A stretch of DNA of 64,000 bases from Fibrobacterota bacterium (GTDB lineage Bacteria > Fibrobacterota > Fibrobacteria > UBA11236), in assembly GCA_947466585.1 (NCBI GenBank), contig CANIEU010000001.1, positions 48,414-112,413 on the forward strand, read 5' to 3'. The notes under the pieces were generated by a model. It was not told where the DNA came from, did no database searches, and saw only the letters and a list, made by a program, of their open reading frames with translations. Positions 24,453 through 56,504 of the stretch are shown here, in pieces. The position numbers were made by a program, and so were the translations under genes. Every line of letters starts with the position of its first letter. The stretch's first letter is position 1.

Positions 24453-24462
24453 AGAGGAGGAT

Positions 24463-24598
24463 GGTTAGTGGGTAGTGGGTAGTGGGTAAGGTAAAGGAGG
24501 TAGATGGATTTAGGTTCAGATTGCTTGAACCAGTGACTGCTGAGATTTGCTTTCGTGAGTTTCCAAATCTGTGTTCCACCTACCTACTACCTACTGAC
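24463..24598. repeat. Palindromic GGTAG-unit element, variant arms (gttagtgggtagtgggtagtgggtaagg ... ccacctacctactacctactgac)
   Basis: Inverted arms around a ggttcagattgcttgaacc central hairpin between Dabb and GT4 genes. Confidence 0.55.
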
Positions 24599-24607
24599 AA
24601 CTTCTCG

Positions 24608-27042: not shown

Positions 27043-27152
27043 GGACGGACGGTAGACGGTAGTAGGTAGACGGTAGAGAAAAAATCGGCAAAAAGGTTAC
27101 CGAACATTCCATTTCTAGTGTTCGCTACCGTCTACCGATTACTGTCTATCTC
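27043..27152. repeat. Palindromic GGTAG-unit element (gacggtagacggtagtaggtagacggtagag ... ctaccgtctaccgattactgtctatc); right arm supplies stop codon of minus-strand gene
   Basis: Inverted arms read directly; fills the whole gap between convergent genes. Confidence 0.65.
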
Positions 27153-28180
27153 TTCACCATCGAGAACGCATAGATCGCGCTCATGCTGTCGTCGATCTTT
27201 GCAATGCCGCGGTAGCCCAGCACCTCACCGCCCAAATACACCTTCGCACCAAAGCGCTCCAAGCTGCTCAACTCCTGCAAAATCGAGGTGCGTTGCCGGT
27301 CCTCGGTACGCAACAGGATCACCGGCGCATGGCCCAAAAGCGAGAACTCCAGTCGCTTCGGCACTGCGAGGCCGCCCCACGAGGTACGTTCCGATGAGGT
27401 GATCGCGGTGGGCTTGAGCAAGGTCATCACGCCGTTTTCTTCCCGCACTCCGTATCCGAACACCGTGGAACCGTTTTGGAAAAAGTATCCGCCTTCGGCA
27501 CGTCCCGTGGTGACGGCGTAGCGATACCCCGCATCCATGAACTTGGTACCGAATTGGGTTTGCCGTGTGTGGTCCATCCAACCGAATCCGCGCACAGCCA
27601 CGGTGTCGCGAGCGACGGCGAGCCAGCCGCGCACGCGCGCCTTGGGAATGTGCAGAAACAATGCCGCCTGATCGCCGCCGCCGAACCGGAAAATGCCGTC
27701 GCCCCAGACCACGCCCGGCGTCATGTTCTCGAAGGTGAGGTCGAGAAAATAATCGTGCCCGCCCTTGGTGGTGGAAAACGTGACGTGGTGGGCGCGCGGG
27801 GGAAGCCCTTCGGCAAAGATGTCGTCGTGCACCGCGAGGCGCGCCGTAGCGGGATTCCAGGAAAAGTTTTTCAACGGATATTCGCGCGCCACAAAGTAAT
27901 TGCGACCCGCAAAATTCATCAGCGCCAGATCGGCGCCGCATACCGGATCCTTGAACTTGCCGAAGAACACGCGCGACAGATTCAGCTGCACCTGAATGCC
28001 GTCGTTAAGCCGCAACTGATAGGTCCAGAATTCATTGTGCGCGCGGCCCGGGCCCGGTTCAGGAGCGTAGTCGGTCAGGTTGTCGCGACGCAGCTCGCCC
28101 GTTGGGGCTGTCACCGCCGCCAGACAAGGCCGGGAAGACAGTAGAGCCAATGAAATCGCAGCCACAAACGCACGGGTCAT
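27146..28180 (-). CDS. Secreted hypothetical protein (possibly lipocalin/AttH-like)
   Basis: ORF 27146..28222; signal peptide MTRAFVAAISLALLSSRPCLAA; no confident family. Confidence 0.45.
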   Translation of the reverse strand: MTRAFVAAISLALLSSRPCLAAVTAPTGELRRDNLTDYAPEPGPGRAHNEFWTYQLRLNDGIQVQLNLSRVFFGKFKDPVCGADLALMNFAGRNYFVAREYPLKNFSWNPATARLAVHDDIFAEGLPPRAHHVTFSTTKGGHDYFLDLTFENMTPGVVWGDGIFRFGGGDQAALFLHIPKARVRGWLAVARDTVAVRGFGWMDHTRQTQFGTKFMDAGYRYAVTTGRAEGGYFFQNGSTVFGYGVREENGVMTLLKPTAITSSERTSWGGLAVPKRLEFSLLGHAPVILLRTEDRQRTSILQELSSLERFGAKVYLGGEVLGYRGIAKIDDSMSAIYAFSMVKR

Positions 28181-28289
28181 CACGGAGAATCGCATGCAGG
28201 ATAAAGTATATATGTCGCGCATGCCCCGTATTCTAAATGGCGTTCAGACGCGTTTCCATCGTACTTTGGCCGACAATCCGGTCCGTCCC

Positions 28290-29429
28290 ATGACAGTGAT
28301 TGCGACGATGGGGATTTTGCTCCTCACCGGAGGCACGGAAGCCGCAACCGCACAGAAAACCGCCGCCGACTCGACCAGCGTAACACCGACCGCTAAAAAG
28401 GCCGGTTATACGATCATCCCCGGATTGAAAATCTCTCCCGAAATCGGCATCGGCGTCGGGATGATGGCTGTCAACCCCCAATCTCCGCGCGAAGGCGCCC
28501 GCATGGAATACCGCCTGCTCTACACCACGCGCGGGCAAGCGGAAGCGCGCATCTCCAACCGCACCACCGAATTTTTCGGCTCGCAATGGGAGGCACGCTT
28601 CGAAGGCAGCTTTCAGCGCTTCCCCGACAGTTATTTCGGAGGCGGCAACAATCCCAACGACTCTGACGAAACCGAATATTCGCCGCTCGGAGGATACGCC
28701 TTTACCTATTTCACGCGCCCCATCGTTGCCGCCGTTCCGCCCATCAAATTCATCGCGGGCGTACGCGCGGAATTCTGGGACATCTCCGACATTCACAAAG
28801 CCGATGGAAGTTTGGGGGCGAGCCAAATTCTGGGCCCGCAAGTTTCCGGGTATCGTGGCGGGCTCGCCGACCTTTGGGAGAGCGGCATCGAGTACGACGC
28901 GCGCGACAGCAAGGACGTGCCCGCGCGCGGCATCCACGCCTCCCAACGCATCGGCACCTCGATCGCGGCGAAGGATGCCTTCCGCTCTTCGGAAAGCTGG
29001 ATCGCGGCGTACCAAACCCTCGGCAGACGTTGGGAAGTCGCGGGCAAACTGTGGCAGAAAACCTTGTTCGGAAACCCGGCCTTTTTTGTGGAGCCGAACC
29101 TGGGCAACGAAGATGTGCTGCGCGGCGTGCCGCATAAACGATTCCGCGACAAGAGCGCGCAGGCGGCGCAGGCCGAAATCCGCTTCGGCTTTCCGCTTGC
29201 GCTTCCGCTCATTGCGGGATGGCTCGGGAAGGATTGGCAGATCGCGACGTTCGGCGAAACCGGGCGCGTGGACAGCGACTTCGAGGAAGCCTCGCAGGGC
29301 ACGCTGCATTACTCCGGCGGCGTGGGCGGGCGGCTTGTGTTCAACAACCGCGTGGGCTGCATGCGCGGCGATCTCGGCTTCAGCGAGCACGGGGTGGCGT
29401 TCATCGTCAAATTCAATCAGGCGTTCTGA
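28290..29429 (+). CDS. Outer-membrane beta-barrel protein of the Omp85/bacterial surface antigen (D15) type
   Basis: Signal peptide then beta-strand-rich sequence ending ...GDLGFSEHGVAFIVKFNQAF; start at MTVIATMG in ORF 28080..29429. Confidence 0.55.
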   Translation: MTVIATMGILLLTGGTEAATAQKTAADSTSVTPTAKKAGYTIIPGLKISPEIGIGVGMMAVNPQSPREGARMEYRLLYTTRGQAEARISNRTTEFFGSQWEARFEGSFQRFPDSYFGGGNNPNDSDETEYSPLGGYAFTYFTRPIVAAVPPIKFIAGVRAEFWDISDIHKADGSLGASQILGPQVSGYRGGLADLWESGIEYDARDSKDVPARGIHASQRIGTSIAAKDAFRSSESWIAAYQTLGRRWEVAGKLWQKTLFGNPAFFVEPNLGNEDVLRGVPHKRFRDKSAQAAQAEIRFGFPLALPLIAGWLGKDWQIATFGETGRVDSDFEEASQGTLHYSGGVGGRLVFNNRVGCMRGDLGFSEHGVAFIVKFNQAF

Positions 29430-29466
29430 ACACGGGCGCTCTCTCACCCCTGCTATCTTTTCTTCG

Positions 29467-30072
29467 ATGCTCCGAATTTCTGAAATATTTTACTCACTCC
29501 AGGGTGAAGGGTTCCATGCAGGAACGCCTGCGATTTTCATCCGCGGCGCGGGCTGCAATCTCGCCTGTGATTTCTGTGACACCGACTTTTCTCTGAAGGA
29601 AAAGTTGGAACCGGAGGAAATCGTCGCCCGCATCGCGGAGCATCCCGCGAAGTTCGTGGTGCTCACCGGCGGCGACCCCACCATTCAGGCCGAAGGCTTT
29701 CGCAAACTCACGGAGTTGCTCCACGCTCGCGGCTATTTCGTGACGATGGAGACCAACGGAACTTCAGAAGACACGCTCGGCGTGGATTGGGTCACGGTCA
29801 GCCCCAAGCTTTCGCAGGGAGGCGACTGGAAGCTGAAAACCGGAAACGAGCTGAAACTGGTATTCGAAGGACAGGATCTGACGTTCTTCGAAGTTTCCAA
29901 TTTTTCACACTATTTCCTTCAACCTAAAGAAATCCGCACGGGGCGCTTCGGCAAGGGCGAGCGGGACCTTGCCGCGACGCGCGCCGAGTGGGAACGCACC
30001 ATCGCCGCCGCGATGGCCCGCCCGCGCTGGAAGCTCTCGTTTCAGTTGCACAAGGAACTGGGCCTGCGCTGA
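29467..30072 (+). CDS. queE: 7-carboxy-7-deazaguanine synthase QueE (radical SAM)
   Basis: MLRISEIFYSLQGEGFHAGTPAIFIRGAGCNLACDFCDT Cx14CxxC motif; in the 3' part of the overlong ORF 28726..30072. Confidence 0.9.
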   Translation: MLRISEIFYSLQGEGFHAGTPAIFIRGAGCNLACDFCDTDFSLKEKLEPEEIVARIAEHPAKFVVLTGGDPTIQAEGFRKLTELLHARGYFVTMETNGTSEDTLGVDWVTVSPKLSQGGDWKLKTGNELKLVFEGQDLTFFEVSNFSHYFLQPKEIRTGRFGKGERDLAATRAEWERTIAAAMARPRWKLSFQLHKELGLR

Positions 30073-30157
30073 TTCCCGCCGGGTAGTTCCATCCGGTACT
30101 TCCATCGGGTGATTTCGACCGGAAACTATCTTTGGGCGCAGGATAAGGGGTTTCAGC

Positions 30158-30871
30158 GTGCCCGCGCCAATCATCAAAACGAAATTGAACCGCACCGCAC
30201 TGGTCGTCTTCTCGGGCGGTCAGGATTCCACCACGTGCCTGCACTGGGCGCTGCAAACCTTCGCATCCGTCGAAGGCGTTTTCTTCGATTACGGTCAGCG
30301 CCACGCTTCCGAAGAACGTGCGGCCCAAACCATCGCCTGGCGTCTCGGCATTCCTTTGCGCCGCTTCAAGCTCGACTTCTTCCGCGAGATGGGCGGCAAC
30401 GCGCTCACCGACAACTCGATGGCGATCTCCACCGAGAACGGAAGCCACGGGCTTCCCAACACCTTCGTGCCCGGCAGGAATCTCCTCTTCCTCACCCAGG
30501 CCGCCTCCTACGCCTACACGCGCAACATCCGCGACGTGGTCACCGGCGTGTGCCAGACCGACTTCAGCGGCTACCCCGATTGCCGGCACGAGACCTTGCG
30601 TGCCCTGCAGCGTGCGCTGCATCTCGGCCTTGGTTGGCCCGAAAGAGGGGGCATCTTCCGCATCCACACCCCGCTGATGTTCCGCACCAAGGCCGAGAGC
30701 GTCGCGCTCGCGCGGCGTTGGGGCGCGCTCGAGTCGCTGGCGTACAGCCACACCTGCTACGAAGGTTCCTTCCCACCCTGTGGAAAATGCCCGTCGTGCC
30801 TGCTGCGCGCGAAGGGCTTCGCAGAGGCGGGCGTGTCCGATCCGATTTTCTCACGACCCGCCGCAGAATAA
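30158..30871 (+). CDS. queC: 7-cyano-7-deazaguanine synthase QueC
   Basis: ALVVFSGGQDSTTCL PP-loop, C-terminal zinc Cys cluster (CYEGSFPPCGKCPSC). Confidence 0.9.
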   Translation: MPAPIIKTKLNRTALVVFSGGQDSTTCLHWALQTFASVEGVFFDYGQRHASEERAAQTIAWRLGIPLRRFKLDFFREMGGNALTDNSMAISTENGSHGLPNTFVPGRNLLFLTQAASYAYTRNIRDVVTGVCQTDFSGYPDCRHETLRALQRALHLGLGWPERGGIFRIHTPLMFRTKAESVALARRWGALESLAYSHTCYEGSFPPCGKCPSCLLRAKGFAEAGVSDPIFSRPAAE

Positions 30872-30917
30872 CCTGCGCACGTGCCGTCACCAGCGACCAC
30901 CGAACGGAAGAGTTGAC

Positions 30918-32516
30918 ATGGCCACCCCTCGATCCGCATCCTCCGCTGCTTCAGCTACACCCGAAACTGCGGATGCTTCCCGCGTCATCCCCACGGACCC
31001 GACGCATTACGATGTGTGCATCATCGGATCGGGGCCGGGCGGTTTTGCGGCGGCCATGCGCGGGTTCGACCTCGGTAAAAAAGTCTGCCTGATCGAAGGC
31101 GGGCACATCGGCGGCGCGGGCATCATGCACGGCGCCATGACCAGTAAAACCATGTGGGAACTGGCCAAGGACTACGCCAACGCTTCGTCCGTCGACCGCG
31201 GTTACCGCGCGGCGGGGCTCATGGTCGATTATCAGGCCGTGCGCGACACCATCATCCAGGCCGCCAAGGAGAAGCAGTACCAACTGCTCTCCCAGATCGA
31301 GACCTTCTCGCCTCCGCGCTGGCAGGGCATCGGATCGACCACGCTCAAACGCGGCTTCGCCCGCTTCCACGATGCCGACTCGGTGGACGTGTCGCTGCAC
31401 AACGGGCGCGAGGAACGCGTCACCGCCGACCACTTCATCATCGCCACCGGTTCGAAGCCGCGCAACTTCGGTGGCATCGTGGTGGACAACGAGCGCATCA
31501 TCAACTCCGACGGCGTGCTGTCGTTCCGGGAATTCCCCAAGCGCCTGCTGATCCTGGGCGCGGGCATCATCGGTTGCGAATACGCGAGCATGTTCTCGAA
31601 CTTCGCGCAGACCAAGGTGCACCTGCTCGACCGCCAACCGCGCATCATTCCTTTCGAAGACGAAGACATCAGCACCTTCGTGAGCCATAACCTCGAACAA
31701 AAAGGCGTGGTGATCCATCATAACGCTTTTTTACGCAGCATCACGCGGCATCCTGACTTTCTGGAAGTGGTGGTGGACTACGAGGGCGGTCGCAGCCAGG
31801 TGCTCGAAGTGGATGCGGCGCTGGTGTCGGTGGGTCGTATTCCCAACCTCGACATGCTCGGCCTCGAAAACATCGGCGTGTCTATCAATGCTCGCGGTGG
31901 TCTCGACACCGACTCCGACTGCCGGGTGCTCGCGACTGAAAAAGGCAACATTTACGCCGTGGGCGACGTGACGCAGCGTTCGGCCTTGTACAACGTCGCC
32001 GAAATGGAAGGTCGCTACGCGATCAAGGCCATGTTCGGCCGCAACAAATACCTGCTGCGCTACCACAACATGTCGACCATCATGTTCTTCAACCCCGAAG
32101 TCGCGGTGGTGGGCCTCAACGAGCAACAATGCCAGGCGCAAAAGATCCCCTACCGCGTGGCGTCGTATTCCAATGCGCTGGTGAACCGCGCCATCGCCAT
32201 GCGGCGCACCGACGGCTTCGTCAAAATCCTCGTCTCCGAAGACGGCCACAACCGCATCCTCGGCATGCGCGCCGCGGGCCCGCAGGCCAGCAGCACCATC
32301 ATGGTGGTCGCCAACCTGATGGATCAGGACAAGGGGCTCGAGGACATCATGAAGTCGATCCACCCGCATCCGTCGATCACCGAGGGCATTCAGGAATGCC
32401 TGCGCCTGATGATGGGCAAGTCGGTGTACAAACCGCTGGCCTTCCCCGAAGCCATGCGCATCCGCGCCTGGAGCCCTGAAAACGGGTATTCCGACGTGGA
32501 TATGATGCCGGCTTGA
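30918..32516 (+). CDS. FAD/NAD(P)-binding oxidoreductase (dihydrolipoamide dehydrogenase / SthA-like) lacking redox-active Cys
   Basis: YDVCIIGSGPGGFAAAMRG FAD Rossmann and GAGIIGCEYA NAD Rossmann motifs, C-terminal dimerisation domain; expected CxxxxC replaced by GGAGIMHGAMTSK. Confidence 0.75.
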   Translation: MATPRSASSAASATPETADASRVIPTDPTHYDVCIIGSGPGGFAAAMRGFDLGKKVCLIEGGHIGGAGIMHGAMTSKTMWELAKDYANASSVDRGYRAAGLMVDYQAVRDTIIQAAKEKQYQLLSQIETFSPPRWQGIGSTTLKRGFARFHDADSVDVSLHNGREERVTADHFIIATGSKPRNFGGIVVDNERIINSDGVLSFREFPKRLLILGAGIIGCEYASMFSNFAQTKVHLLDRQPRIIPFEDEDISTFVSHNLEQKGVVIHHNAFLRSITRHPDFLEVVVDYEGGRSQVLEVDAALVSVGRIPNLDMLGLENIGVSINARGGLDTDSDCRVLATEKGNIYAVGDVTQRSALYNVAEMEGRYAIKAMFGRNKYLLRYHNMSTIMFFNPEVAVVGLNEQQCQAQKIPYRVASYSNALVNRAIAMRRTDGFVKILVSEDGHNRILGMRAAGPQASSTIMVVANLMDQDKGLEDIMKSIHPHPSITEGIQECLRLMMGKSVYKPLAFPEAMRIRAWSPENGYSDVDMMPA

Positions 32517-32713
32517 GAAGGAGTCGGGTCGGTTTCGCATCCGCCGTATTCCCAACGTCCTCTTTCCCGCGCATCCCCGAAAAATCAGGCGATTTTTCGG
32601 CCCCGGGGAGTGCCGATATTATATTTGCCCTATCATTCATCCCCGCATAAAGCGCTGGTTCTGATCGTTTTACAAATCGATTCCCTGTGCTGTTTGCCGT
32701 TATTGGAGTCGTC

Positions 32714-34069
32714 ATGCCCGCCTTTCAACACATTCAGGTTCCCGCCAACGGTAAAGCCATCACGCTCAACCCGGCCAACGGCAAGTTGGTGGTTCCCGAG
32801 CACCCGATCATTCCCTTCATTGAGGGCGACGGCACGGGACCGGATATCTGGAAAGCCTCGCAGCACGTGATCGACGAGACCGTGCGCAAGGTTTACGGCG
32901 GCAAGCGCAAGATCGAGTGGATGGAAGTCTACGCCGGCGAAAAATCGCTTTCGGTGTACGGTGAGAACCAGTGGCTTCCCGAAGAGACGCTGACGGCTTT
33001 CAAGGAATACCTCGTCGGCATCAAGGGACCGTTGACCACGCCCGTGGGCGGCGGCATCACCTCGCTGAACGTGGCGCTGCGCCAGATCCTCGACCTCTAC
33101 GTCTGCCTGCGCCCGGTGCGCTGGTACACCGGCGTGCCCTCGCCCGTCAAGCACCCCGAGAAGGTCGACATGGTGATCTTCCGCGAGAACACCGAAGACA
33201 TTTACGCCGGCATCGAGTGGAAGGGCGGCAGCGAAGACGCCGCCAAGATGCTGGCTTTCCTCGAAAAGGAATACCCCAAGCAGTTCGCGAAGATCCGATT
33301 CGGCACCGAGAAGGCCTCGAAGGCCTGGCAGGGCTTGCTGGAATCGGTCGGCGTACCGGCCCGCACCGTGGGGGTGGACGTGGGCGTGGGCGTGAAGGCC
33401 GTCAGCCAACTCGGCACCGAACGCCTGATGTACAGCGCCATTGATTACGCCATTCGTCACAATCGCAAGAGCGTAACGATCGTGCACAAGGGCAACATCA
33501 TGAAGTTCACCGAGGGCGGCTTCCGCGACTGGAGCTACCGCGTGGCGAAGGAGTTCTTCGGCGCGGAACCCATCGACGGCGGTCCGTGGTGCAAGATCCC
33601 CGCAGGCAAGCCGGGCGCGGGCCTGATCATCAAGGACTCCATCGCCGACATCGCGCTGCAGCAGGTGCTGACGCGTCCCGAGGACTTCGACGTGATCGCC
33701 ACGCTGAACCTCAACGGCGACTATCTGTCGGACGCGCTCGCGGCCCAGGTGGGTGGCATCGGCATCGCGCCGGGCGGCAACATCAATTATCTGACGGGAC
33801 ACGCCATCTTCGAAGCGACTCACGGCACCGCGCCCAAGTATGCGAACCTCGACAAGGTGAACCCGGGTTCGGTCGTGCTTTCCGCAGTGATGATGCTCGA
33901 TCACATCGGGTGGACCGAGGCTGCCCGTGCGATCGAGAGCGCGCTGGAACAAACCATCGGCGCCAAAACGGTAACCTACGACTTCGCACGCCTCATGGAC
34001 GGCGCGAAAGAAGTGGGTTGCTTCGAGTTCGGGACGCTTGTGGCGAACGCGGTTCCCCAGTCGAATTAA
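32714..34069 (+). CDS. icd: NADP-dependent isocitrate dehydrogenase
   Basis: Prokaryotic ICDH signature [26 protein letters not shown]; start [10 protein letters not shown]. Confidence 0.9.
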
Positions 34070-34154
34070 TAGTGGGATAAGGACGAATACGGACGAATAC
34101 GGACGATCAAAAGCGAAGACGGCAACGACGGGTCAGGAAGCAAGGAGTACTCTC

Positions 34155-35342: not shown

Positions 35343-35498
35343 TTTTTAAGGAAATGGGTGTTTGGAAGGGGCTCTCGGAAGGGGGCCCTTTCTTTTTAGT
35401 CAGAATTCCGCGAGGTTCCGTTACGAGGTTTACGTCCTGGATATTGGGGTTCTATAATGGGAGCAATGCAATTCAGCGGAAAGGTTTAAGGTCCTAAT

Positions 35499-36053
35499 AT
35501 GACTAAGCAAATAGTCTTCCTTGGAATCCTGATTTTATCTCTCCTCAGCCTTTCAAATGCTGGGCAAAATACGGTTAGCCAAAGCGGAGCAACTGTTGAG
35601 AAATGGAAGTCCTTAGAAAACTGGCGAATGTTAAGGAATGACATGGGTCAGAAAAGTGTGAGAAAAATATTGGGGGAGCCAGAACGTATCAATGGCGGAG
35701 TAGTAGCTTTTTGGAACTATCCAAATGGCGGCGACGTTACCTTCATGGATGGCAAAGTGTCTGGATGGAGTGAGCCACTTAGATGGGATGAGGGATCAGG
35801 AAACGCCTCCTCATCAGATATTGATCCAGATAAATTAGTGCTAGGAATTTTACTGGTTGCGATTCTCTTCTATTTTACACCGATTCTGTGGGTGTTGTTT
35901 TCCAGCCGTTCAACTGGTGGGGCTAAATTCGGTTGGTTCCTTATAACCATTGTGTTTTCTTGGTTAGGATTCGCAGCCTTTTTGATTTTGACGCAAACGG
36001 CAAAGGCCCGTAAGCAATTAGAATCGAAAACATACGGAGGACAAAGTGAGTAG
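35499..36053 (+). CDS. Secreted/membrane protein: BamE (SmpA/OmlA)-like domain plus C-terminal two-TM PLDc_N-like segment
   Basis: Signal peptide; W.L..GM....V...LG.P..I...W.Y..GG.V.F.....V.GW.EP pattern; C-terminal ILFYFTPILWVLF...FGWFLITIVFSWLGFAAFLI. Confidence 0.5.
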   Translation: MTKQIVFLGILILSLLSLSNAGQNTVSQSGATVEKWKSLENWRMLRNDMGQKSVRKILGEPERINGGVVAFWNYPNGGDVTFMDGKVSGWSEPLRWDEGSGNASSSDIDPDKLVLGILLVAILFYFTPILWVLFSSRSTGGAKFGWFLITIVFSWLGFAAFLILTQTAKARKQLESKTYGGQSE

Positions 36054-36405
36054 ATATCATTTCGCAATTTTGATTTCGCTCCTTGTGTCAGCAACCCAAG
36101 CATCTTCACAAACCAGCTACGATTCCATGTCGCAACAGCTTGAAGAGAAGATCATATTACTTGAAAAACGGATTTCCACAATTGAAGATCAATTGAGGGA
36201 AGGGAAAGCACCGATTCAAGCTCCTCCGGGAAAAGCGAGCTGGCGACAGCTTAAAAAGGGCATGTCTGAGGCCGAAGTCGAAGGATTGCTAGGCAGCCCT
36301 GCCAAGATTGAAAATTATGGATCCTTCAGTATTTGGAACTATCAGAAGGGTGGTTCTGTTCAATTCAACGAGGACGCATTAGTCAAAGGTTGGTTCGAGC
36401 CCTGA
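36046..36405 (+). CDS. Secreted BamE-like protein, paralog of preceding ORF, with coiled-coil N-region
   Basis: Signal peptide MSRYHFAILISLLVSATQASSQ; shares the W..L..GM..EV..LLG.P..I...W.Y.GG.V.F....V.GW.EP pattern with 35499..36053. Confidence 0.5.
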   Translation: MSRYHFAILISLLVSATQASSQTSYDSMSQQLEEKIILLEKRISTIEDQLREGKAPIQAPPGKASWRQLKKGMSEAEVEGLLGSPAKIENYGSFSIWNYQKGGSVQFNEDALVKGWFEP

Positions 36406-36430
36406 CTCAAATTCTCTTACGCTATGACTT

Positions 36431-36593
36431 CGGTCTGATGTATGAGACGTACCACACGATGCTGTTCGGCCTGTTGCGCTGCGTGGGCATTGCGTCGCAG
36501 ATCGTGTGGGAACTCACCGAGGCGCGGGGTGACAAGGGAATGCCCATCGTGCGGCCGAAGTACGTGTACACGTGGCCGGCTGTAAAGGGGTGA
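36431..36593 (+). pseudogene. Duplicated 3' fragment of the citrate synthase gene (last roughly 50 codons) with its downstream sequence
   Basis: Translation ...YHTMLFGLLRCVGIASQIVWELTEARGDKGMPIVRPKYVYTWPAVKG closely matches citrate synthase C-terminus; similarity continues about 90 nt past the stop. Confidence 0.7.
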
Positions 36594-36893
36594 TTTTTAC
36601 AGGAAATTGGTGTGTGGAAGGGGCTCCTAGAAGGGGGCCCTTTCCTTTTTAGTCAGAGTTTTTAGAGTCCCCGTGAAGGGGTTTACGAAGTAAGAGCCTA
36701 GGTTTATACTAAAGCTCGTTCACCTAACGACTGAGGCATTTAATCTGCAGTGCTAGTCAAGGTTATTACCACTAGACCAATTTCTGGCCAGATAACCCCG
36801 TAAACACAAATTATCAAAGGCGCCCATCCAATTTGTTGGTTTCGGCCATATGGCAAACCCTACAACTACTCAGAATATGACAGGCAGGCGGAA

Positions 36894-37808
36894 TTGATGA
36901 AGGCAATACAGATATATAAGCCTGGCTATCTCTATGTACTAGTTCACCCATCTAATCCAAATCTCTATAAGATCGGAGTAACTGTCCTTCAACCTGAGAA
37001 GCGATTGGCCCAGCATAACAATCAACACAACAAATACGCGGGCAAGATCGTCAAAGAGTCGGGTCAAAAATGGGAGCTTAAGGCACACATTTCCGTCCCC
37101 GACCCATATTGGGCTGAAAGTGCCTTTTGGGGAGCTACGCATTTCCCGGAAATTCCTTATCGAAAAGGCATCGAAATCGAAATAATGACTTGGGATTTGG
37201 TGCAAATTGGTTTGGAGGCGGCAAAACAGGCCGGGGTTCGACCAACCCCAGCGTCTTACCCTGATTATGTGTATGCCTATACGGCGTCAGTCCAAAAACG
37301 ACTGGAAGGCAGAGGCATTTCCCTCTTAGGATACGTGCGAAGCATGGTGAGCGGAAGATCCGATTTCCGATGCGAAAATGGACACGAATGGCACACGACT
37401 CCTAAACTCGTAGCTGATGGAGAGGGTTGTCCCATTTGTGGGATTGGCACACAGAGTTTAACAGAGATCAGAGAGCGTATTAAGGCCGGCGTTATATTCT
37501 TACTGACACATGAAGGTAGGCCTGGATATTTTAAAATTGGGCTGCATTTAGGCGCTATCGAAAATGCTTTCCAAAACTGGCCTTTTGGCGATTGGCAGTG
37601 TCATCGTTATAGGAATGTGGAGGAAGTCGAACTAGCCATTACAGTTATTTGGGAGTTACTAGGATTGCCTCTTCCCCATGACCAAGAAGCATTCATGATG
37701 GATAAAAAGGAAGCGGAAAAAGCTTTCAGAGATTTGACTTACGTTATCCAGGAACGGACTGCCGCCACCGGGAGGGTCAAAGAGAAACCCAATGACTCCA
37801 ATCGCTAA
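36894..37808 (+). CDS. Tandem T5orf172/MUG113-type GIY-YIG-superfamily protein with an internal zinc ribbon
   Basis: GYLYVLVHPSNPNLYKIGVTVLQPEKRLAQHN matches T5orf172 N-terminal consensus; degenerate repeat GVIFLLTHEGRPGYFKIGLH; CENGHEWHTT...CPICG between them. Confidence 0.55.
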   Translation: MMKAIQIYKPGYLYVLVHPSNPNLYKIGVTVLQPEKRLAQHNNQHNKYAGKIVKESGQKWELKAHISVPDPYWAESAFWGATHFPEIPYRKGIEIEIMTWDLVQIGLEAAKQAGVRPTPASYPDYVYAYTASVQKRLEGRGISLLGYVRSMVSGRSDFRCENGHEWHTTPKLVADGEGCPICGIGTQSLTEIRERIKAGVIFLLTHEGRPGYFKIGLHLGAIENAFQNWPFGDWQCHRYRNVEEVELAITVIWELLGLPLPHDQEAFMMDKKEAEKAFRDLTYVIQERTAATGRVKEKPNDSNR

Positions 37809-38235
37809 ACAAACCGCCCCTTCGGTCAAATCCTTCCTCGCCTCGCTCGACGACGAACAGACCCAAGCGGATGCGAAAATGCTCGTCGCTCTGATGAAGC
37901 GCATCAGCGGGAAAACCCCAAAGATCTGGAACGTCGGCACGATCGGCTTCGACACCTACCACTACAAGTACGACAGCGGACGCGAGGGCGACAACGCCGT
38001 CCTCAGTTTTTACCCCCGCAAGGGCAAGTACACCATTTACCTGATGGACGGCTGCGCACGCCATTCCAAATTGTTGGAAAAACTCGGGAAGCACACCACA
38101 AGCCGCGTTTGCCTCTACTTCAAACGACTCAGCGATTTGGATTTAACCGTCCTGGAAAAAATCCTGGAACAGTCCTACGCCTACATCAAGGCGCAAGACG
38201 GGAACATGGGCCAAGTGCAAGAGGGATGGCGATAA
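37792..38235 (+). CDS. DUF1801 (YdhG-like) domain protein, overlapping the preceding gene by 17 nt
   Basis: 147 aa; pattern consistent with DUF1801. Confidence 0.55.
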   Translation: MTPIAKQTAPSVKSFLASLDDEQTQADAKMLVALMKRISGKTPKIWNVGTIGFDTYHYKYDSGREGDNAVLSFYPRKGKYTIYLMDGCARHSKLLEKLGKHTTSRVCLYFKRLSDLDLTVLEKILEQSYAYIKAQDGNMGQVQEGWR

Positions 38236-38294
38236 GGGCCATCAAGCGCTCGAACGCAAACGAATCGTCGCAGACAATTCTGCGCTGACTGGAT

Positions 38295-38457
38295 CCCGGC
38301 CTTCGCCGGGATGACAGCGTTTGGGGCAAAACACAGGTCATTCCTCCAGGCCGGAGTTTACCCCCGCGAAGGCGGGGGCCGGGATGACAGCGTTGGGAGC
38401 AAAACTCGAGTCCTTCCTTCGGACCAGAGATTACCCCCTTCCGCTCGAAGGATGGGG
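38295..38457. repeat. About 2.5 degenerate tandem copies of an approximately 70-bp unit, each starting with a GC hairpin followed by gggatgacagcgtt(t)ggg(g/a)gcaaaac
   Basis: cccggccttcgccggg / cccccgcgaaggcggggg / ccttccgctcgaagg hairpins read directly; at island boundary. Confidence 0.45.
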
Positions 38458-38600
38458 AGTCGGCGATAGACCTCGACCCCTATAAACCGTTAAATTCCCC
38501 TAAAAACCGCTGTTCAAAAACCACTTGCGCAATTGATCGGTTGCGCTTATATTTGCTACCGAATGGTTGCTGATAACATATCGCGACCCGAAGGAGCCCC

Positions 38601-38978
38601 ATGAGACGAGACATCTTCCAGGCTATTGCAGACCCGACGCGGCGGGCCATTGTGATGCTGCTCGCCGTGCACGCGATGACGCCCAACGCCATGGCCGAGC
38701 ATTTCGACACCAGTCGGCAGGCCGTCTCCAAACACATCCACATTCTGCTGGAATGCGACCTACTCGATCAGGAACAACAAGGCCGGGAAATCCGCTATCA
38801 CCTAAGGGCCGACAAGATGAAACAAATCGAACAGTGGCTCGAGCAATTCAAAGCCTTGATGGCCGCGCGGTTCACGCAACTCGACGAGGTGCTGGCCCAA
38901 CTGAAATCCCGAACCAACACTCAAACTCCAACCAACCCCACCACCCTCACTACCATTACAAAAGCGAGAAAGACATGA
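38601..38978 (+). CDS. ArsR/SmtB-family winged-helix transcriptional regulator
   Basis: IFQAIADPTRRAIVMLLAVHAMTPNAMAEHFDTSRQAVSKHIHIL HTH region. Confidence 0.8.
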   Translation: MRRDIFQAIADPTRRAIVMLLAVHAMTPNAMAEHFDTSRQAVSKHIHILLECDLLDQEQQGREIRYHLRADKMKQIEQWLEQFKALMAARFTQLDEVLAQLKSRTNTQTPTNPTTLTTITKARKT

Positions 38979-39478
38979 GCTCGGAAAAAATCTTTAACTT
39001 CGTCGTCGACAAAGACAATCTCCGCGTCACCATCGAACGCTCCTTCGACGCCCCCCGCGACCTCGTGTGGGCCGCATGGACCGAGGCCGAACTGCTCGAT
39101 CAATGGTGGGGGCCCAAGCCGTGCCGCGCGGAGACGAAATCCATGGACTTCTCCGAAGGCGGACGCTGGCTCTACGCCATGGTCATCCCCGGCGTCGGAA
39201 AGAAATGGGACTCGAAGAGCTTCCTGAAGATCGACCCCAAGGACAGCTTCACGTATCGCAGCGCGTTTTGCGATGAAAACGGAATCGTGGCCCCGGAGAC
39301 GAAGAGTTCGGTGTGGGTGAATTCCTTCACAGAGCGCGACGGAGTCACCGTGGTCACCAACGTCATCACCAACGATTCGCTCGAACGCCTTGAGCTCATG
39401 ATTCAGATGGGCTTCAAGGAAGGCTATACCGCGGGTCTCGATCAGCTTGAAGAGTTGCTGGCGGACCTTCAGAAATAG
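38975..39478 (+). CDS. SRPBCC / AHSA1 (activator of Hsp90 ATPase homolog)-like protein, coupled to ArsR gene (ATGA overlap)
   Basis: RVTIERSFDAPRDLVWAAWTEAELLDQWWGPKP N-terminus typical of AHSA1/SRPBCC proteins paired with ArsR regulators. Confidence 0.7.
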   Translation: MSSEKIFNFVVDKDNLRVTIERSFDAPRDLVWAAWTEAELLDQWWGPKPCRAETKSMDFSEGGRWLYAMVIPGVGKKWDSKSFLKIDPKDSFTYRSAFCDENGIVAPETKSSVWVNSFTERDGVTVVTNVITNDSLERLELMIQMGFKEGYTAGLDQLEELLADLQK

Positions 39479-39526
39479 GGAACATCCGAAAGCCCAATAA
39501 CCAGCGGCGGGGAGACTCGCCGTTGG

Positions 39527-40786
39527 TTGCGGACATGGGCTACCTTTCCCTCGATGCCCCCCGCCTCGAAATCAGAAGTCCATCCCGCCCGCACCGAATC
39601 TCCAGTATGGGGTGCAGGCTGGGTGATGTTCCTCAGCTTCGCAGGCCTCTCCGCAACGCAGTTCCACGGCTACCTCTTTGAAGGCAAAGGCTTCTCGCCC
39701 TTGCAGATCGGCTTCCTGCTCGGTGCCGGATACGCCGCAGGGCTGCTCGCACCGGCCGTGCAGGTCAACGCCATCCGCCGCCTGCGGGGCCCGCGCATCC
39801 CGCTCGCCATCGTGCTCGCCGGGGCCGGCACCGCCATGGCCCTGTTGCCGTGGGCCAACCACTTCGGCTCCGTGCTCTTCCTGTTTTTCTGCACCCTGTT
39901 TTGCTCCGCGGGCATCCACCCCCTCACCGCCGCCTGCGCGCTCGAGGCCACGCGCACGCGCGGGCAGGGCACCTACTTCTTGATCCGCAGCCTCGGCACA
40001 GCGGGATTTTTAGCGGGATGCATCGCCAGTTTCTTTCAGCCGGGCGTCGACAAACTGCCGTGGTTGTACTTCGGATTCGGCGCGGCCTTTTGGTGCACCA
40101 TTCCCCTTGCGCTCAACCGTTTTCGCCCGAGCGATCCGCGTCAAGCGCCCGAAGACATCCTCGTCACGCCGCTCCCGCGCCGCACTCCCGGATTCGGCCG
40201 CGCGTTGCGCCTGCTCTCCGCCCCGCGCGCCAAGCGTTTGTTATGGACGCTCGGTGTGATGAATTTCGCCAACGCCATGGCCACCCTGGTGCAAGGCAAC
40301 TATCTCGTCTCGCGTTTCGACGGCGGGCAAAGTTCCATCAGCTTCGCATGGATCGTGGCGACCACGGTGGAGATACCGCTGATGTTTTTATGCGCCTGGA
40401 TGGTGCGTCGCTTCGGCCTGCGCACCGTGATCGGATTCGGGCTGCTCGGCACCACCATCAAGCTGGCATTGCTTGGAGCGGCCGACAGTTACGGCGTGTT
40501 TCTCGCCGGACTGGCCTTCCACGGCTGTTTCTTCTCGGGCGCGCTCGTGGGATTCAATCTCTTCATCGACAAACATTTCGCCATCGCCGATCGCCCTTCG
40601 TTGCAATCGCTGGGCGCTCTCTTTTATACCGGATTGCCCTCGGCATTCGGCGGACTCACCGCAGGGGTGCTCTGGCACTTCTTCGGCTTGCGCTCGGTGT
40701 ACGTGTTCACGGCGCTGGTGGCGATCGGGGCGGGAGCGTACACGCTCAGGCTGCTGCCGATGCTGCCGGGACGGGAGAGACGGTAG
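39527..40786 (+). CDS. MFS transporter (12 TM); start may be downstream; last codons and stop lie in repeat arm
   Basis: multi-TM hydrophobic profile across 419 aa. Confidence 0.7.
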   Translation: MRTWATFPSMPPASKSEVHPARTESPVWGAGWVMFLSFAGLSATQFHGYLFEGKGFSPLQIGFLLGAGYAAGLLAPAVQVNAIRRLRGPRIPLAIVLAGAGTAMALLPWANHFGSVLFLFFCTLFCSAGIHPLTAACALEATRTRGQGTYFLIRSLGTAGFLAGCIASFFQPGVDKLPWLYFGFGAAFWCTIPLALNRFRPSDPRQAPEDILVTPLPRRTPGFGRALRLLSAPRAKRLLWTLGVMNFANAMATLVQGNYLVSRFDGGQSSISFAWIVATTVEIPLMFLCAWMVRRFGLRTVIGFGLLGTTIKLALLGAADSYGVFLAGLAFHGCFFSGALVGFNLFIDKHFAIADRPSLQSLGALFYTGLPSAFGGLTAGVLWHFFGLRSVYVFTALVAIGAGAYTLRLLPMLPGRERR

Positions 40787-40888
40787 ACGTTAGTAGGTGG
40801 ACGGTAGAGAACTCCGAATAAGAAATTTTGAAACCAAGTACAAGTTGATGCGCTTTGTTTTTGCTACCGTCTACCGACTACCGTCTCT
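40775..40888. repeat. Palindromic GGTAG-unit element (gagagacggtagacgttagtaggtggacggtagag ... ctaccgtctaccgactaccgtctc); both arms supply stop codons to the convergent flanking genes
   Basis: TAG of MFS gene at 40784-40786 and TAG (minus) of ArsC-like gene at 40880-40878 both lie in the arms. Confidence 0.65.
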
Positions 40889-41240
40889 TTGACCAAGTTC
40901 TTCCGAACAACACCTCGTCAAACCCCACCGTCGCGCTTTTACCATCTGTGACCAAGGGACGCTTGATCAGGCGACCGTTGCCCGCCAAAAGGTCGAACGC
41001 AGCCGCGTCCGTCATGCTGCCGATCTTGTCCTTAATGCCCAAGAGCTTGTATTGCTCACCGCTGGTGTTGAACAACTTGCGCAGCGGCAACCCGGATTGC
41101 TCCAGAATCTTTTTCAATTCCATTTTGGAGGGCGGGGTTTCGGTGATGTCCGCAAAACCGTACGAGACTCCGGCGGTCTCCAGTGCCTTTTCTGCCTTGC
41201 GGCAGGTCGAACATTTCTTGTAGCCGTAGAATTTGAGCAT
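40878..41240 (-). CDS. ArsC/Spx-family (glutaredoxin-like arsenate reductase-related) protein
   Basis: MLKFYGYKKCSTCRKAEKALETAG CxxC N-terminus typical of ArsC/Spx/YffB family; C-terminal part of ORF 40878..41870. Confidence 0.75.
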   Translation of the reverse strand: MLKFYGYKKCSTCRKAEKALETAGVSYGFADITETPPSKMELKKILEQSGLPLRKLFNTSGEQYKLLGIKDKIGSMTDAAAFDLLAGNGRLIKRPLVTDGKSATVGFDEVLFGRTWSKRR

Positions 41241-41290
41241 CGGAGAAAAAGTAGTAGGTAGACGGTAGTAGGTAGTAGGTAGATGAAAGC
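41241..41290. repeat. Partial/degenerate GGTAG-unit repeat (gtagtaggtagacggtagtaggtagtaggtagatg), same-orientation units only
   Basis: read directly, adjacent to ArsC-like start. Confidence 0.4.
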
Positions 41291-41389
41291 AAAAAGTCGG
41301 AAGCTGAGGCTGAAAGGCCGAAGTCCGCCGAAGGCGGGTCGGTAGTCGGAAGTGTGAGAACGGGCGGTCGGAAAATATTTCTTCAAACC

Positions 41390-41405
41390 TGTGACCGTAG
41401 TCACA
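41390..41405. promoter_or_regulatory. Inverted repeat TGTGAC-cgta-GTCACA upstream of radC-like gene (candidate operator), followed by tacaat -10-like hexamer
   Basis: read directly. Confidence 0.3.
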
Positions 41406-41571
41406 CAAGCGGGCAGCGGAACGGTCGCCCCTCGTGTACAATGCCGTCATGAACGACAGCACACCCATTCCGTACACACTCCCCAAGCTCCTTCCTGCGC
41501 CCCTTCCCGAACCTCTGCCGCCGGCACCGACGCCGACCGAACCGCGCCCACCCGACTCCACTTGCACCTCG

Positions 41572-42252
41572 ATGCTGAAAAGCCTGGAATCCCATCTGTG
41601 GCCGCGCGAAAAAATGGGGCGAGAGGGCGCCGAAGCCCTGTCGAACCAGGAATTGCTGGCCGTGCTGTTCGGCCGCGGCCAAAGGGGCAAGGACGTGCTC
41701 GCACTCGCGGGCGAAGTCACTCTGTACCTTGAACGCGTCACCGAACCGCCTACCCTCCACGACCTCTGCCGCATCCACGGCATCGGCCACGGCAAGGCCT
41801 GCCAGATTCTCGCCGCGCTCGAGCTCTCGCGCCGCTTCCTGACGCGACGCCATCGCATCCGCATCCGCAAAGCGTCCGACGCCCTTCCCTACCTCGGCTC
41901 GTTGCGCGGGCGCCGGCAAGAATGCTTCGCCGTGCTCACGCTCGACGGCAACCATCAGGTGATCCGCGCGCACGAGATCACCATCGGGCTCGCGAACCAA
42001 AGCCAGGTGCACCCGCGAGAAACCTTCGCCTGCGCGGTGGAAGATCGTGCCGTTGGGATTCTGGCCGCGCACAACCATCCCAGCGGCTCGCTCGATCCTT
42101 CTGCCGAAGACCTCGTCTCCACACGTCGGCTCGCCGAAGCCGGACGACTGCTCGGCATTCCCTTGCTCGACCACCTGATCGTCACCGCGGAGGGGTTCAC
42201 TTCTTTGCGGGAGAGATTTCCGGATTATTTCGTGGGGGCGAGAGGGTGGTGA
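41572..42252 (+). CDS. radC: RadC-like JAB/MPN-domain protein (UPF0758); alternative upstream start at 41434
   Basis: LWPREKMGREGAEALSNQELLAVLFGRGQRGKDVLALA helix-hairpin-helix N-region and HNHPSGSLDPSAED JAB zinc motif. Confidence 0.75.
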   Translation: MLKSLESHLWPREKMGREGAEALSNQELLAVLFGRGQRGKDVLALAGEVTLYLERVTEPPTLHDLCRIHGIGHGKACQILAALELSRRFLTRRHRIRIRKASDALPYLGSLRGRRQECFAVLTLDGNHQVIRAHEITIGLANQSQVHPRETFACAVEDRAVGILAAHNHPSGSLDPSAEDLVSTRRLAEAGRLLGIPLLDHLIVTAEGFTSLRERFPDYFVGARGW

Positions 42253-42256
42253 CCAA

Positions 42257-42752
42257 CGGACGGTAGACGGTAGTAGGTAGACGGTAGAGAACCCATCTGG
42301 AGAACTTATGTCAACGACAAAGGGATACAGGCAATTAATTGTCTGGCAGAAGGCAATGGAAATGATTCCCGAAGTTTACCGTATCATCCGTGTGCTTCCA
42401 AAAGAAGAGCGATTTGGAATGGCTGAACAAATGCGAAGAGCAGCAGTTTCAGTTGTAGCCAACATGGCCGAAGGCCAAGGCAGAAACGGAAAACGGGATT
42501 TTGCTCACTTCCTCGACATCTCTCAAGGGAGCCTCTCTGAATTGGATACCCTCCTTTCAATCGCAATACAGCTGGAGTACGTGCCCGAAACTACCACCAA
42601 AGCCGTTTCGGAAAAACTCGTGGAAGTTCGGAAATTATTGTTCGGGCTTCTTAATAAGCTCAGAACGTCTTAGAATAATGAACCCCCATTTTTCTGAGTT
42701 TCCCCGATTTTCGTCTTCTCTACCGTCTACCTACTACCGTCTACCGTCTATC
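42257..42752. mobile_element. Expanded palindromic GGTAG-unit element carrying a four-helix-bundle protein gene as cargo
   Basis: Left arm cggacggtagacggtagtaggtagacggtagagaac (42257-42292) and right arm tctctaccgtctacctactaccgtctaccgtctatc (42716-42752) match arms of the empty copies at 27043 and 40775. Confidence 0.55.
42308..42673 (+). CDS. Four-helix-bundle protein of the 23S rRNA intervening-sequence protein family (Avd-like)
   Basis: 121 aa; QLIVWQKAMEMIPEVYRIIRVLPKEERFGMAEQMRRAAVSVVANMAEGQGRNGKRDFAHFLDISQGSLSELDTLLSIA is characteristic of this family. Confidence 0.75.
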   Translation: MSTTKGYRQLIVWQKAMEMIPEVYRIIRVLPKEERFGMAEQMRRAAVSVVANMAEGQGRNGKRDFAHFLDISQGSLSELDTLLSIAIQLEYVPETTTKAVSEKLVEVRKLLFGLLNKLRTS

Positions 42753-56410: not shown

Positions 56411-56474
56411 GAAATGGGCATCGAGTTCATTCCCTGACCTCCATCGCTCTTTTCATTAACTCCCTATTTTCCGT

Positions 56475-56504
56475 TCTGATTTCTCATTTCTCATTTCTGA
56501 AATT
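56475..56504. repeat. Tandem heptamers tctgatttctcatttctcatttctg, reverse-orientation relative of the 6087-6112 repeat, just upstream of a + strand gene
   Basis: read directly. Confidence 0.55.

Follow-up and report, generated by a model that had tools for sequence, protein, structure and literature searches.

Intervening sequences (IVSs) that bear an open reading frame (ORF) are known from the 23S rRNA of Leptospira and Coxiella burnetii, and the present analysis adds Azospirillum lipoferum. Their stem of about 30 bp carries in its loop the ORF of a four-helix-bundle (4HB) or S23p protein of about 120 aa, the whole element measuring about 430–500 nt with GC content below that of the host. 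The Coxiella IVS has 428–444 nt, a 28-bp terminal stem with the S23p ORF in its loop, and 36% GC vs. 42.5% (PMC4990558). Such IVSs are transcribed within their host RNA, and an RNase III cut in mid-stem has been reported (PMC4990558). Here we describe a cassette of the same anatomy in the spacer between the protein genes radC and crcB of a Fibrobacterota bacterium (lineage UBA11236), together with hairpins built of the same 7-nt units that lack the gene. The DNA analyzed, called the window below, is a 64,000-nt stretch (positions 48,414 to 112,413, forward strand) of contig CANIEU010000001.1 from assembly GCA_947466585.1; coordinates refer to it unless another sequence is named, and loci from other sequences carry L numbers.

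Heptamer repeats have a separate literature. Rehm et al. (2015) described about 186 GGGAATC sites per genome in Xanthomonas campestris and X. axonopodis, with 70–75 convergent inverted pairs and 83% of positions conserved between the two species, as well as the GGGGA(T/C)T repeats of Nostoc, and found that some arrays of this type fold as G-quadruplexes (PMC4692102). MacGregor (2015) described TAACTGA heptamers in Beggiatoaceae, Cyanobacteria and Bacteroidetes, with "no mechanism evident" (PMC4679880). Over-representation of heptamers has been remarked on in Calothrix, Xanthomonas, Nostoc and Beggiatoa. Neither "S23" nor "helix bundle" occurs in PMC4692102, 4HB genes are likewise unmentioned in PMC4679880, and IVS arms are not described as heptamer arrays in PMC4990558 or PMC10053308. 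We found no paper linking 4HB/S23 genes to heptamer arrays in open-access full text. Heptamer repeats, 4HB proteins and IVSs have each been described already; it is the link between them that we could not find in that open-access text.

The radC-crcB cassette

The cassette fills the radC-crcB spacer, and its 4HB gene has the orientation of both neighbors. The left arm (42257..42291, plus strand) begins 4 nt past the radC stop codon and reads (ACGGAC) GGTAGAC GGTAGTA GGTAGAC GGTAGAG AA, every unit having a core that is conserved, such as GGTAG, and roughly two bases that vary. The right arm (42716..42752, plus strand) is the reverse complement of the left, and the crcB ATG lies 9 nt beyond its end. 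Over 33 nt (42259-42291 and 42716-42748, spaced 424 nt) the arms are 100% complementary (33/33), the order of the variable dinucleotides being exactly mirrored. Between them lies an intact gene for a 121-aa protein of the 23S rRNA IVS family (42308..42673, plus strand), identified by family hidden Markov models (HMMs) and an AlphaFold model. It has GGAG 8 nt before its ATG, starts only 16 nt after the left arm, and has 46% GC vs. 60.6% for the window. A promoter scan found no sigma-70-like promoter upstream of the gene, which is weak evidence, as Fibrobacteria promoters may differ.

In the RNA fold of the segment 42240-42770 the whole ORF is enclosed by a stem at the ends (dG −186 kcal/mol, z −6.7). 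Enclosure of an ORF by long-stem terminal inverted repeats, here of 33/33 bp, is the arrangement of IVSs, and the perfect 33-bp duplex is by its sequence a plausible RNase III substrate. The location is not that of IVSs, in helix 9, 25 or 45 of 23S rRNA: Rfam finds no rRNA in the window, indeed no match at all there at gathering thresholds, and nothing at E≤1 within 40.5–43 kb. A preliminary description of this DNA, made from the letters alone, had reported a full copy at 42257-42752 with an intact 121-aa 4HB gene between arms shared with other copies, and the 33/33 arms bear it out; it had also placed the copy in "ordinary intergenic DNA", which is right as to location in the radC-crcB spacer but passes over the anatomy, which is that of an rRNA intervening sequence.

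The 4HB protein

The ORF at 42308-42673 matches PF05635 with 122.7 bits (E 9.5e-36, cut-off 33.8) and TIGR02436 with 117.2 bits (E 3.8e-34, cut-off 24), so that the earlier assignment to the superfamily of IVS proteins and Avd is supported; the two models for Avd, the accessory protein of diversity-generating retroelements (DGRs), score below their cut-offs (bAvd PF22296, 37.7 bits against 40; Avd equivalog NF033474, 39 bits against 80). An AlphaFold (AF2) model from 32 homologs, built as a monomer only, has pLDDT 94.2 and helices at 11-28, 32-58, 62-88 and 94-120. The closest solved structure by sequence is XCC0516 of Xanthomonas (2GSC, E 1.7e-23, 40% identity), followed by BT_0352 (2RLD), and the model agrees with them at TM-scores of 0.91 (root-mean-square deviation 0.8 Å) and 0.79, respectively. 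Both PDB entries contain 5 chains, and 4HB relatives of this type are described in the literature as pentamers (PMC4990558 among others). Family HMMs and structure comparison gave no match to a transposase, integrase or nuclease domain in the protein.

Avd of DGRs has the same fold; it assembles as a pentamer and is in contact with an RNA duplex (bioRxiv 10.1101/2023.10.23.563531). The model aligns to Avd (4DWL and structures of DGR ribonucleoproteins) at a TM-score of about 0.8, with identity of only 13–15%. The preliminary description was correct that no reverse transcriptase (RT) is nearby: there is none among the ORFs between 32.6 and 45.2 kb, and no pair of template and variable repeats (TR/VR) was found near the cassette. 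The sole long direct repeat nearby (35177/36428, 172 nt in this comparison) was considered as a TR/VR pair and ruled out because its mismatches are not adenine-specific. The family HMM, run against the six-frame translation, finds no second 4HB gene in the 64-kb window.

Gene-less hairpins in the window

We found GGTAGnn units at five loci of the window, and three of these, the cassette among them, are full hairpins, in line with the preliminary claim of dispersed GGTAG-unit palindromes at several intergenic loci; its further claims also agree with the coordinates, namely two-armed copies of about 100 bp at 27043 and 40775, a variant at 24463 and a partial copy near 41250. Allowing ≤2 mismatches, GGTAGACGGTAG has 23 matches in the window vs. 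1.9 ± 1.5 in 100 dinucleotide shuffles, none of which reached 23, and there are 7 period-7 runs as against 0–3 for every other period from 4 to 11.

The hairpin at 27043..27150 (arms 27043-27080 and 27121-27150, 28 nt at 86% complementarity, units GGTAGAC/GGTAGTA, 40-nt unique loop) stands between convergent genes, and the TAG stop codon of the minus-strand gene (27146-27148) lies in an outer arm unit. That at 40775..40888 (arms 40775-40811 and 40858-40888) stands between the gene for a major facilitator superfamily (MFS) transporter on the plus strand and an ArsC/Spx-like gene on the minus strand, and the TAGs of its units are the stop codons of both (40784-40786, TAG; 40878-40880, CTA); orthologous hairpins occur in loci L072 and L093. 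Arm spacing in these two short copies is about 40–50 nt. The variant at 24463..24596 has GGGTAGT units on the left (24463-24495) and CCTACCTACTACC on the right (24576-24596); the genes on either side of its spacer (GT4, Dabb) are both on the minus strand. A single GGTAGnn array with no partner arm (41250..41284, plus strand) lies where the ArsC-like gene and radC diverge, in a spacer whose orthologs in L072 and L093 hold full hairpins; next to it are scattered GTCGGAA/GTCGGTA units (41296..41354, plus strand), the unit type of the cassette arms of L080. The GGTAG hairpins occupy their spacers completely. RNA folding gave dG −49.4 and z −7.1 for 27040-27155, dG −44.3 and z −4.8 for 40772-40892, z −3.0 for 24460-24600 (minus strand), and no hairpin for the single array (41240-41365, z −0.5).

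A second family, which like the GTCGGAA units is absent from the preliminary description, forms imperfect hairpins, also empty. The one at 6086..6206 fills the glmS-scpA spacer; its left arm is (GAAATCA)x3, its right arm is made of GAAATnn units in reverse complement, and the TGA of glmS overlaps with the first unit. At 56394..56500, GAAATGA/GAAATCA units fill a same-strand spacer. Their folds are weaker (z −1.9 and −1.7, respectively).

Aligned with the interior of the full copy, or with each other, the loops of the short copies score only at the level of shuffled controls; the best alignment reached z 3.0, with p 0.017 before correction for 12 comparisons. The short copies are therefore, as judged from sequence, not recognizable deletion derivatives of the full copy. 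An ancient origin of that kind may still apply, since the orthologous loops of the window and L072 are also unalike.

A scan of metagenomes with GGTAGACGGTAGTAGGTAG found the arms on 21 contigs of 48–65% GC, all (21/21) without a 4HB gene. Most of these contigs hold empty hairpins in non-coding stretches beside coding-looking sequence, several directly after a stop codon, and some hairpins enclose other heptamer arrays. Two contigs (L060, 221-400; L066, 1300-1460) have GGTAG arrays plus GGTAAAC/GGGAAAC and AGTAATT/TGTAAGT hairpins, nested or side by side; unit families of more than one kind seem to be stacked within a single spacer.

The locus in related Fibrobacteria

Every contig on which the 4HB or CrcB protein is identical also has the identical cassette. 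The gene order MFS-ArsC-RadC-4HB-CrcB is common to the window, L072 and L093, and these three lineages have hairpins or arrays at the same three spacers. L080, a 1.5-kb contig on which 4HB and CrcB are preceded by a RadC fragment, shows the cassette site only. We saw no unoccupied radC-crcB spacer in L072, L080, L082 or L093 and no target-site duplication at the arm ends in the window; the comparison of occupied with empty sites in relatives, suggested beforehand, yielded no empty site, the full copy being fixed in same-species contigs.

The sites have stayed and the units have changed. Relative to the window (unit GGTAGAC), L072 and L082 have units GGTGGAC/GACGGTG (4HB protein 53% identical, neighbors 71–76%), L080 has GTCGGAA/GTCGGAC/GTCGGAT (4HB 59%, CrcB 71%, partial RadC 85%), and L093 has GGTACTG/GGTAATG (4HB 57.5%, neighbors 74–77%, arginine decarboxylase 90%). 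Arm complementarity in the four lineages is 33/33, 32/33, 41/47 and 35/38. Since the arms stay complementary in every lineage although the units differ, comparison of the sequences shows that units changed in concert on both arms and, where this could be checked, at several loci, with the sites unmoved: L093 has one unit in all three orthologous spacers, and L072 has the GGTGG variant both in the cassette and in the hairpin between the MFS and ArsC genes. In that L072 hairpin the outermost units, which supply stop codons, keep TAG, and the inner units have GGTGG. The 4HB gene of L093 (3483-3839) has an in-frame TAA and no obvious start codon; its cassette arms and two orphan hairpins (1716-1900 and 2290-2395) are long, regular GGTACTG arrays. 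In 6/7 cassettes checked, the GC content of the 4HB gene is well below that of its locus.

Most contigs with close homologs of the window 4HB gene are very short (0.5–2 kb). Heptamer arrays may break short-read assemblies, leaving 4HB genes and their repeats under-represented in metagenome-assembled genomes (MAGs).

Arrays at 4HB genes across phyla

A scan of one genome per species gave 46 loci with 4HB genes 30–54% identical to the window protein, from Bacteroidota, Cyanobacteria, Planctomycetota, Acidobacteriota, Deltaproteobacteria, Methylomirabilota and others. Ungapped inverted repeats were scored between 250-nt flanks, with pseudo-gene positions in the same loci as controls: a score ≥12 was reached around the gene at 34/43 loci vs. 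34/1320 control positions (Mann-Whitney p 6e-26). Tandem arrays are present on 72/111 of the 4HB gene flanks (65%), at about 55 loci, and in 129/1685 control windows (8%). Fifty of the flank arrays have period 7, 10 have period 6, 3 have period 8 and 4 have period 10, with a median of 4.4 units per arm. Period 7 is the commonest among control-window arrays too, which points to orphan arrays; orphan hairpins of the local units lie ≤3 kb from the 4HB gene in L013, L019, L043 and L072. At distant loci as well, upstream arrays are reverse complements of downstream arrays, and the 4HB gene is co-oriented with both neighbors at every locus where both were called or annotated as ordinary genes.

The unit is lineage-specific; among those found are AGTAATT, TAACGT/TGACGT, GCGATA, AACGCTT, AAAGCTG, AAAGGCT, GTTATTG, GTGCGGA, GTCCGAA, GAGTCTGG, AGCGGAT, GGGAGNN, GCCGNNA and CTAGTAN. 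On cyanobacterial plasmids the arms are GGAGTCA (Nostoc punctiforme), GGGTGTA (Calothrix) and, on one side only, AGGGCAG (PCC 7120). The preliminary description had staked its proposal on finding the arms around other 4HB genes; they are indeed flanked by inverted arrays of 6–8-nt units, though not of the same sequence. An Aeromonas 4HB gene (P0119) has CGACTAA/CGAATCA heptamers on both sides; we considered it as an rRNA IVS and rejected this, as it is located in an O-antigen cluster.

In the wider set, most highly similar 4HB pairs are syntenic orthologs. Paralogs at unrelated loci of one MAG (L001 and L002) are 83% identical, and their homology covers the ORF only, the arms being largely different. 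Two deltaproteobacterial genomes (L016, 12-2921; L029, 573-3422) have the cassette in opposite orientations with respect to the conserved flank next to it. The L016 array is about 170 nt long, and the inversion implies recombination between the inverted heptamer arrays, a sign that the arms are active at the DNA level.

Two cyanobacterial cases deserve comment. In L089, from plasmid alpha of Nostoc sp. PCC 7120 (record positions 3776-4126), the 4HB gene has a CTGCCCT array on its downstream side alone. Upstream it borders on a transposase gene, and there is an IS200/IS605 tnpA downstream; this setting suggests loss of the left arm to an insertion. The 4HB protein of L024, from a MAG labeled Candidatus Obscuribacterales, is 99% identical to that of L026 (Planktothrix sp. 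PCC 11201), with translated flanks at 95–98%; this MAG contig is probably misbinned cyanobacterial DNA.

rRNA IVSs and the Xanthomonas repeats

One match, on a plasmid of Azospirillum lipoferum 4B, is a 4HB ORF with no annotated feature beneath it that lies inside large-subunit rRNA (Rfam, 2283-5481 of L094), at the helix-45 site. The arms of this IVS are AGAGGAC GGATGAC AGAGGAC GGAGGAC AGAAAGG, with 31/36 positions complementary. In view of these heptamer arms, the cassette between radC and crcB and the classical ORF-bearing IVS are of one kind.

The other link is to the published heptamer repeats. The X. campestris ortholog of XCC0516 lies in the accB-accC spacer, in the direction of both genes. 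Its upstream arm is GGGAATC GGGAGTG GAGAATC GGGAATC and its downstream arm the reverse complement of GGGAATA GGGAGTC GAGAATG GGGAATG (33/38 complementary), and three further GGGAATC arrays are found within the same 20 kb. Stenotrophomonas has the same arrangement and units around its 4HB gene.

Comparison with described systems

The cassette shares with rRNA IVSs the size, the stem, the ORF and the low GC content, and with that of Azospirillum the heptamer-array arms; by analogy it would also be transcribed within its host RNA. It differs in lying in an mRNA spacer (radC-crcB) rather than in rRNA helix 45, and in that other spacers hold hairpins of the same units without the gene. The window repeats belong with those of Xanthomonas, Nostoc and Beggiatoaceae, being tandem 7-nt intergenic units, often in convergent inverted pairs, conserved in position between related species and placed close to start or stop codons; the units GGTAGAC and GAAATCA are new sequences, and the roles proposed in the papers are G-quadruplex or translational ones (PMC4692102, PMC4679880).

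The cassette has some of the logic of REPIN/RAYT systems, by analogy and not homology: a single or low-copy gene flanked by inverted copies of a dispersed intergenic repeat (in the window, Xanthomonas, L013, L019, L043 and L072), a lineage-specific repeat, and long-term vertical, syntenic residence. RAYT, however, is an HUH tyrosine transposase whose chemistry is known, whereas the 4HB protein has no known catalytic motif; REPINs are copied whole with their spacer, whereas here the arms are shared and the loops unique; and in place of one fixed palindrome the arms here consist of short units in tandem. With DGR Avd there is a common fold, a pentamer in the solved relatives and, as a feature of Avd, contact with structured RNA, but the cassette has neither RT nor TR/VR, and its protein falls below the Avd model cut-offs at 13% identity. 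Like MITEs (miniature transposable elements with inverted repeats) and BIMEs the hairpins are short, many-copy palindromic intergenic repeats; unlike them they have no target-site duplication and no conserved interior, their arms consist of tandem units, and diverged lineages have orthologous copies whose sequence has changed in a concerted way. The cassette, then, would work like an ORF-bearing IVS at a site other than those of IVSs; it is not a DGR component, and it does not have the marks of a MITE or transposon.

Tandem 7-nt intergenic repeats of cyanobacteria are also known as STRR. We treat these as a lead only, as the arms GGGTGTA, GGAGTCA, AGGGCAG and GTGCGGG differ from the published STRR consensus sequences.

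Alternative explanations

On balance we lean toward the view that one cassette of the intervening-sequence type is accompanied here by orphan hairpins from the same family of repeats, the protein and the repeats being partners. This draws on the anatomy, its generality across phyla, the rRNA IVS and Xanthomonas cases, persistence at orthologous sites, concerted change of units and inversion of a cassette, all of them direct observations. That the repeats are independent simple sequences grown by slippage, with a coincidental gene nearby, has practically no chance of being right: tandem heptamers can expand in this way, and the loops are unrelated, but the excess in the window (23 matches, 1.9 expected), the exact 33/33 mirroring of variable dinucleotides, the controls, and the recurrence in about 55 loci of many phyla, in an rRNA IVS and in Xanthomonas already refute it. 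Hardly more can be said for a DGR remnant or satellite in which the protein would act as Avd with an RT encoded elsewhere. The weak matches to PF22296 (37.7 bits) and NF033474 (39 bits) and the fold (TM-score 0.80) are in its favor; against it, both scores are below cut-off (40 and 80 bits), identity is 13% to Avd vs. 40% to XCC0516, the ORFs from 32.6 to 45.2 kb include no RT, the direct repeat nearby is a duplicated citrate synthase 3′ end, and four lineages have kept the radC-4HB-crcB arrangement without an RT. The preliminary description had proposed an autonomous element with MITE-like derivatives, the arms being terminal inverted repeats and the 4HB protein providing mobility. Shared arms and a single gene-bearing copy remain from this proposal, and it would accommodate the low gene GC (46% vs. 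61%), the occurrence of similar units and proteins in different phyla (e.g., GTGCGGA in Anabaena and Gemmatales), the paralogs at unrelated loci of one MAG, and the mobile-element idea of Ralph and McClelland for IVSs, as cited in PMC4990558. As a mechanism it is improbable: the protein has no transposase, integrase or nuclease domain, there is no visible target-site duplication and no convincing sharing of subterminal sequence, the loops having no relation to the full copy or among themselves. Moreover, cassette and empty copies occupy the same three sites despite 23–29% divergence of neighboring proteins, the most similar 4HB pairs are syntenic orthologs, paralog homology ends at the ORF and excludes the arms, and same-species contigs show no presence/absence polymorphism.

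A stronger competitor, to which we still give only a minor share of belief, is that heptamer hairpins are host elements (mRNA stabilizers, terminators, RNase III sites or G-quadruplex regulators) and that the 4HB gene is a passenger targeting their loops. It would explain why empty copies outnumber full ones by 4–6 to 1 in the window and stand alone on 21/21 metagenome contigs, why L001 and L002 are homologous in the ORF only, why L093 retains its arrays while its gene decays, why arrays fill spacers and abut or supply stop codons, and why Xanthomonas positions are 83% conserved between species and some arrays form G-quadruplexes (PMC4692102). But the cassette encodes no insertion machinery; arrays on 65% of 4HB flanks vs. 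8% of controls would call for very strongly preferential targeting; helix 45 of rRNA, a place where one expects no prior host heptamer hairpin, has the same design inside it; and many units, such as AGTAATT, TAACGT and AAAGCTG, cannot form a G-quadruplex. Two general roles for the repeats were tried and rejected on their own account: G3N4 arrays, the basis for a G-quadruplex, occur only in several loci (L093, L081, L091, L025 and L089), many units having no runs of G, and the provision of stop codons in all three frames as a reason for period 7 holds for GGTAG, many other units being, on inspection, stop-free.

Several observations weigh against the partnership of protein and repeats that we favor. 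The clusters of 4HB proteins correlate with unit types, but this is confounded by descent, because both follow taxonomy. The largely different arms of the 83% identical L001/L002 paralogs weaken a strict specificity of protein for unit, and the window has three unit families for one 4HB gene. The arrays of L093 are regular despite its decayed 4HB gene and are thus independent of the local gene. We caution, from L093, L001/L002 and the three window families, against a simple rule of one protein for one unit. The ORF of the Coxiella IVS is apparently not expressed (PMC4990558). Finally, arm mismatches on the sense strand in 45 cassettes are as often of the G:U type (46) as of the A:C type (52; p 0.61); there being no excess of G:U-compatible mismatches, pairing in sense RNA is not specifically favored over symmetry at the DNA level, and a DNA-level role of the arms (cruciform formation, recombination, homogenization) is equally possible.

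Other features of the window

The gene order around the cassette is MFS transporter (39527-40786, plus), ArsC/Spx-like (40878-41240, minus), RadC (plus), 4HB (plus), CrcB (42762-43136, plus) and arginine decarboxylase (plus). GlmS has 89% identity to a protein of a MAG named Fibrobacteria bacterium and 65–67% to Fibrobacter proteins, in accord with an uncultured Fibrobacterota source. The direct repeat mentioned above (35177-35397/36428-36649, about 220 nt, 87–90% identical) comprises the citrate synthase 3′ end and the GC-rich hairpin of its terminator. Between the two copies is an insert of 1.25 kb, in which one small ORF of 184 aa has no Pfam match and another of 119 aa is weakly BamE-like; a GIY-YIG/T5orf172 gene follows (36894-37808). 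The arrangement looks like an insertion that duplicated the end of citrate synthase.

A 59-nt motif has 85% identical copies at 43189-43247 (plus) and 61329-61387 (minus), directly before the start codons of arginine decarboxylase (43255) and dnaA (59755-61326, minus strand); it has no Rfam match, and with two copies only there is no covariation evidence for structure. Two 61-nt tandem copies (38305-38365 and 38378-38438, 82% identical, 73 nt apart, GCCGGGATGACAGCG...TTACCCCC) lie in the spacer before an AHSA1-family gene. At 14816-14911 there is a period-12 repeat of coding type (CTTCTTCACGACCTT and variants), whose minus strand would encode a lysine-rich repeat.

Discussion

If the protein and the repeats are partners, the cassette could work as follows. 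With no more than 16 nt from the left arm to the start codon, no sigma-70-like promoter found, and both neighbors co-oriented with the gene, here and wherever they are ordinary genes, the 4HB gene would be transcribed by read-through from radC. The arms would pair in the transcript, and RNase III would cut the stem, by analogy with 23S rRNA IVSs, releasing the 4HB mRNA and leaving the host messages usable. The 4HB pentamer would recognize the units of its own arms and those of gene-less hairpins elsewhere in the genome; this is suggested by the pentamers of 2GSC, 2RLD and Avd, the contact of Avd with an RNA duplex, units made of a core and a variable spacer, and the presence of about 4–5 units per arm. 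Protein and repeat family would then be a co-inherited pair, in logic like RAYT/REPIN, and units would be homogenized within arrays, between arms and between loci, so that each lineage comes to have its own. Binding, RNase III processing, and a benefit of the pair to the host or to itself are what we infer here.

There is a substantial chance that this locus exposes a general protein-repeat system. There is also a broader proposal, which we hold tentatively and would not yet call probable: PF05635/TIGR02436 proteins and bacterial heptamer repeats may be the halves of one widespread system, in which a pentamer reads about five 7-nt units, perhaps one subunit per unit, and is encoded within a hairpin of its own sites, with orphan hairpins in operon spacers. 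ORF-bearing rRNA IVSs, the Xanthomonas GGGAATC repeats, the STRR-like repeats of cyanobacteria and the Avd of DGRs would then be offshoots.

The finding bears on annotation and assembly, since arrays supply the stop codons of neighboring genes and the short contigs would fit assembly breaks at arrays. Function is testable in Xanthomonas, which offers the XCC0516 structure, about 186 mapped GGGAATC sites and a cassette in the well-studied accBC operon. The 4HB/"S23" family has reportedly had solved structures since 2006, and the origin of rRNA IVSs is said to have been debated since about 1990. Three old puzzles meet at this locus, namely the function of the 4HB/"S23" family outside DGRs, the origin of rRNA IVSs and the over-representation of heptamers: gene and repeats go together across phyla, and the rRNA IVS and the Xanthomonas repeats fit the same pattern.

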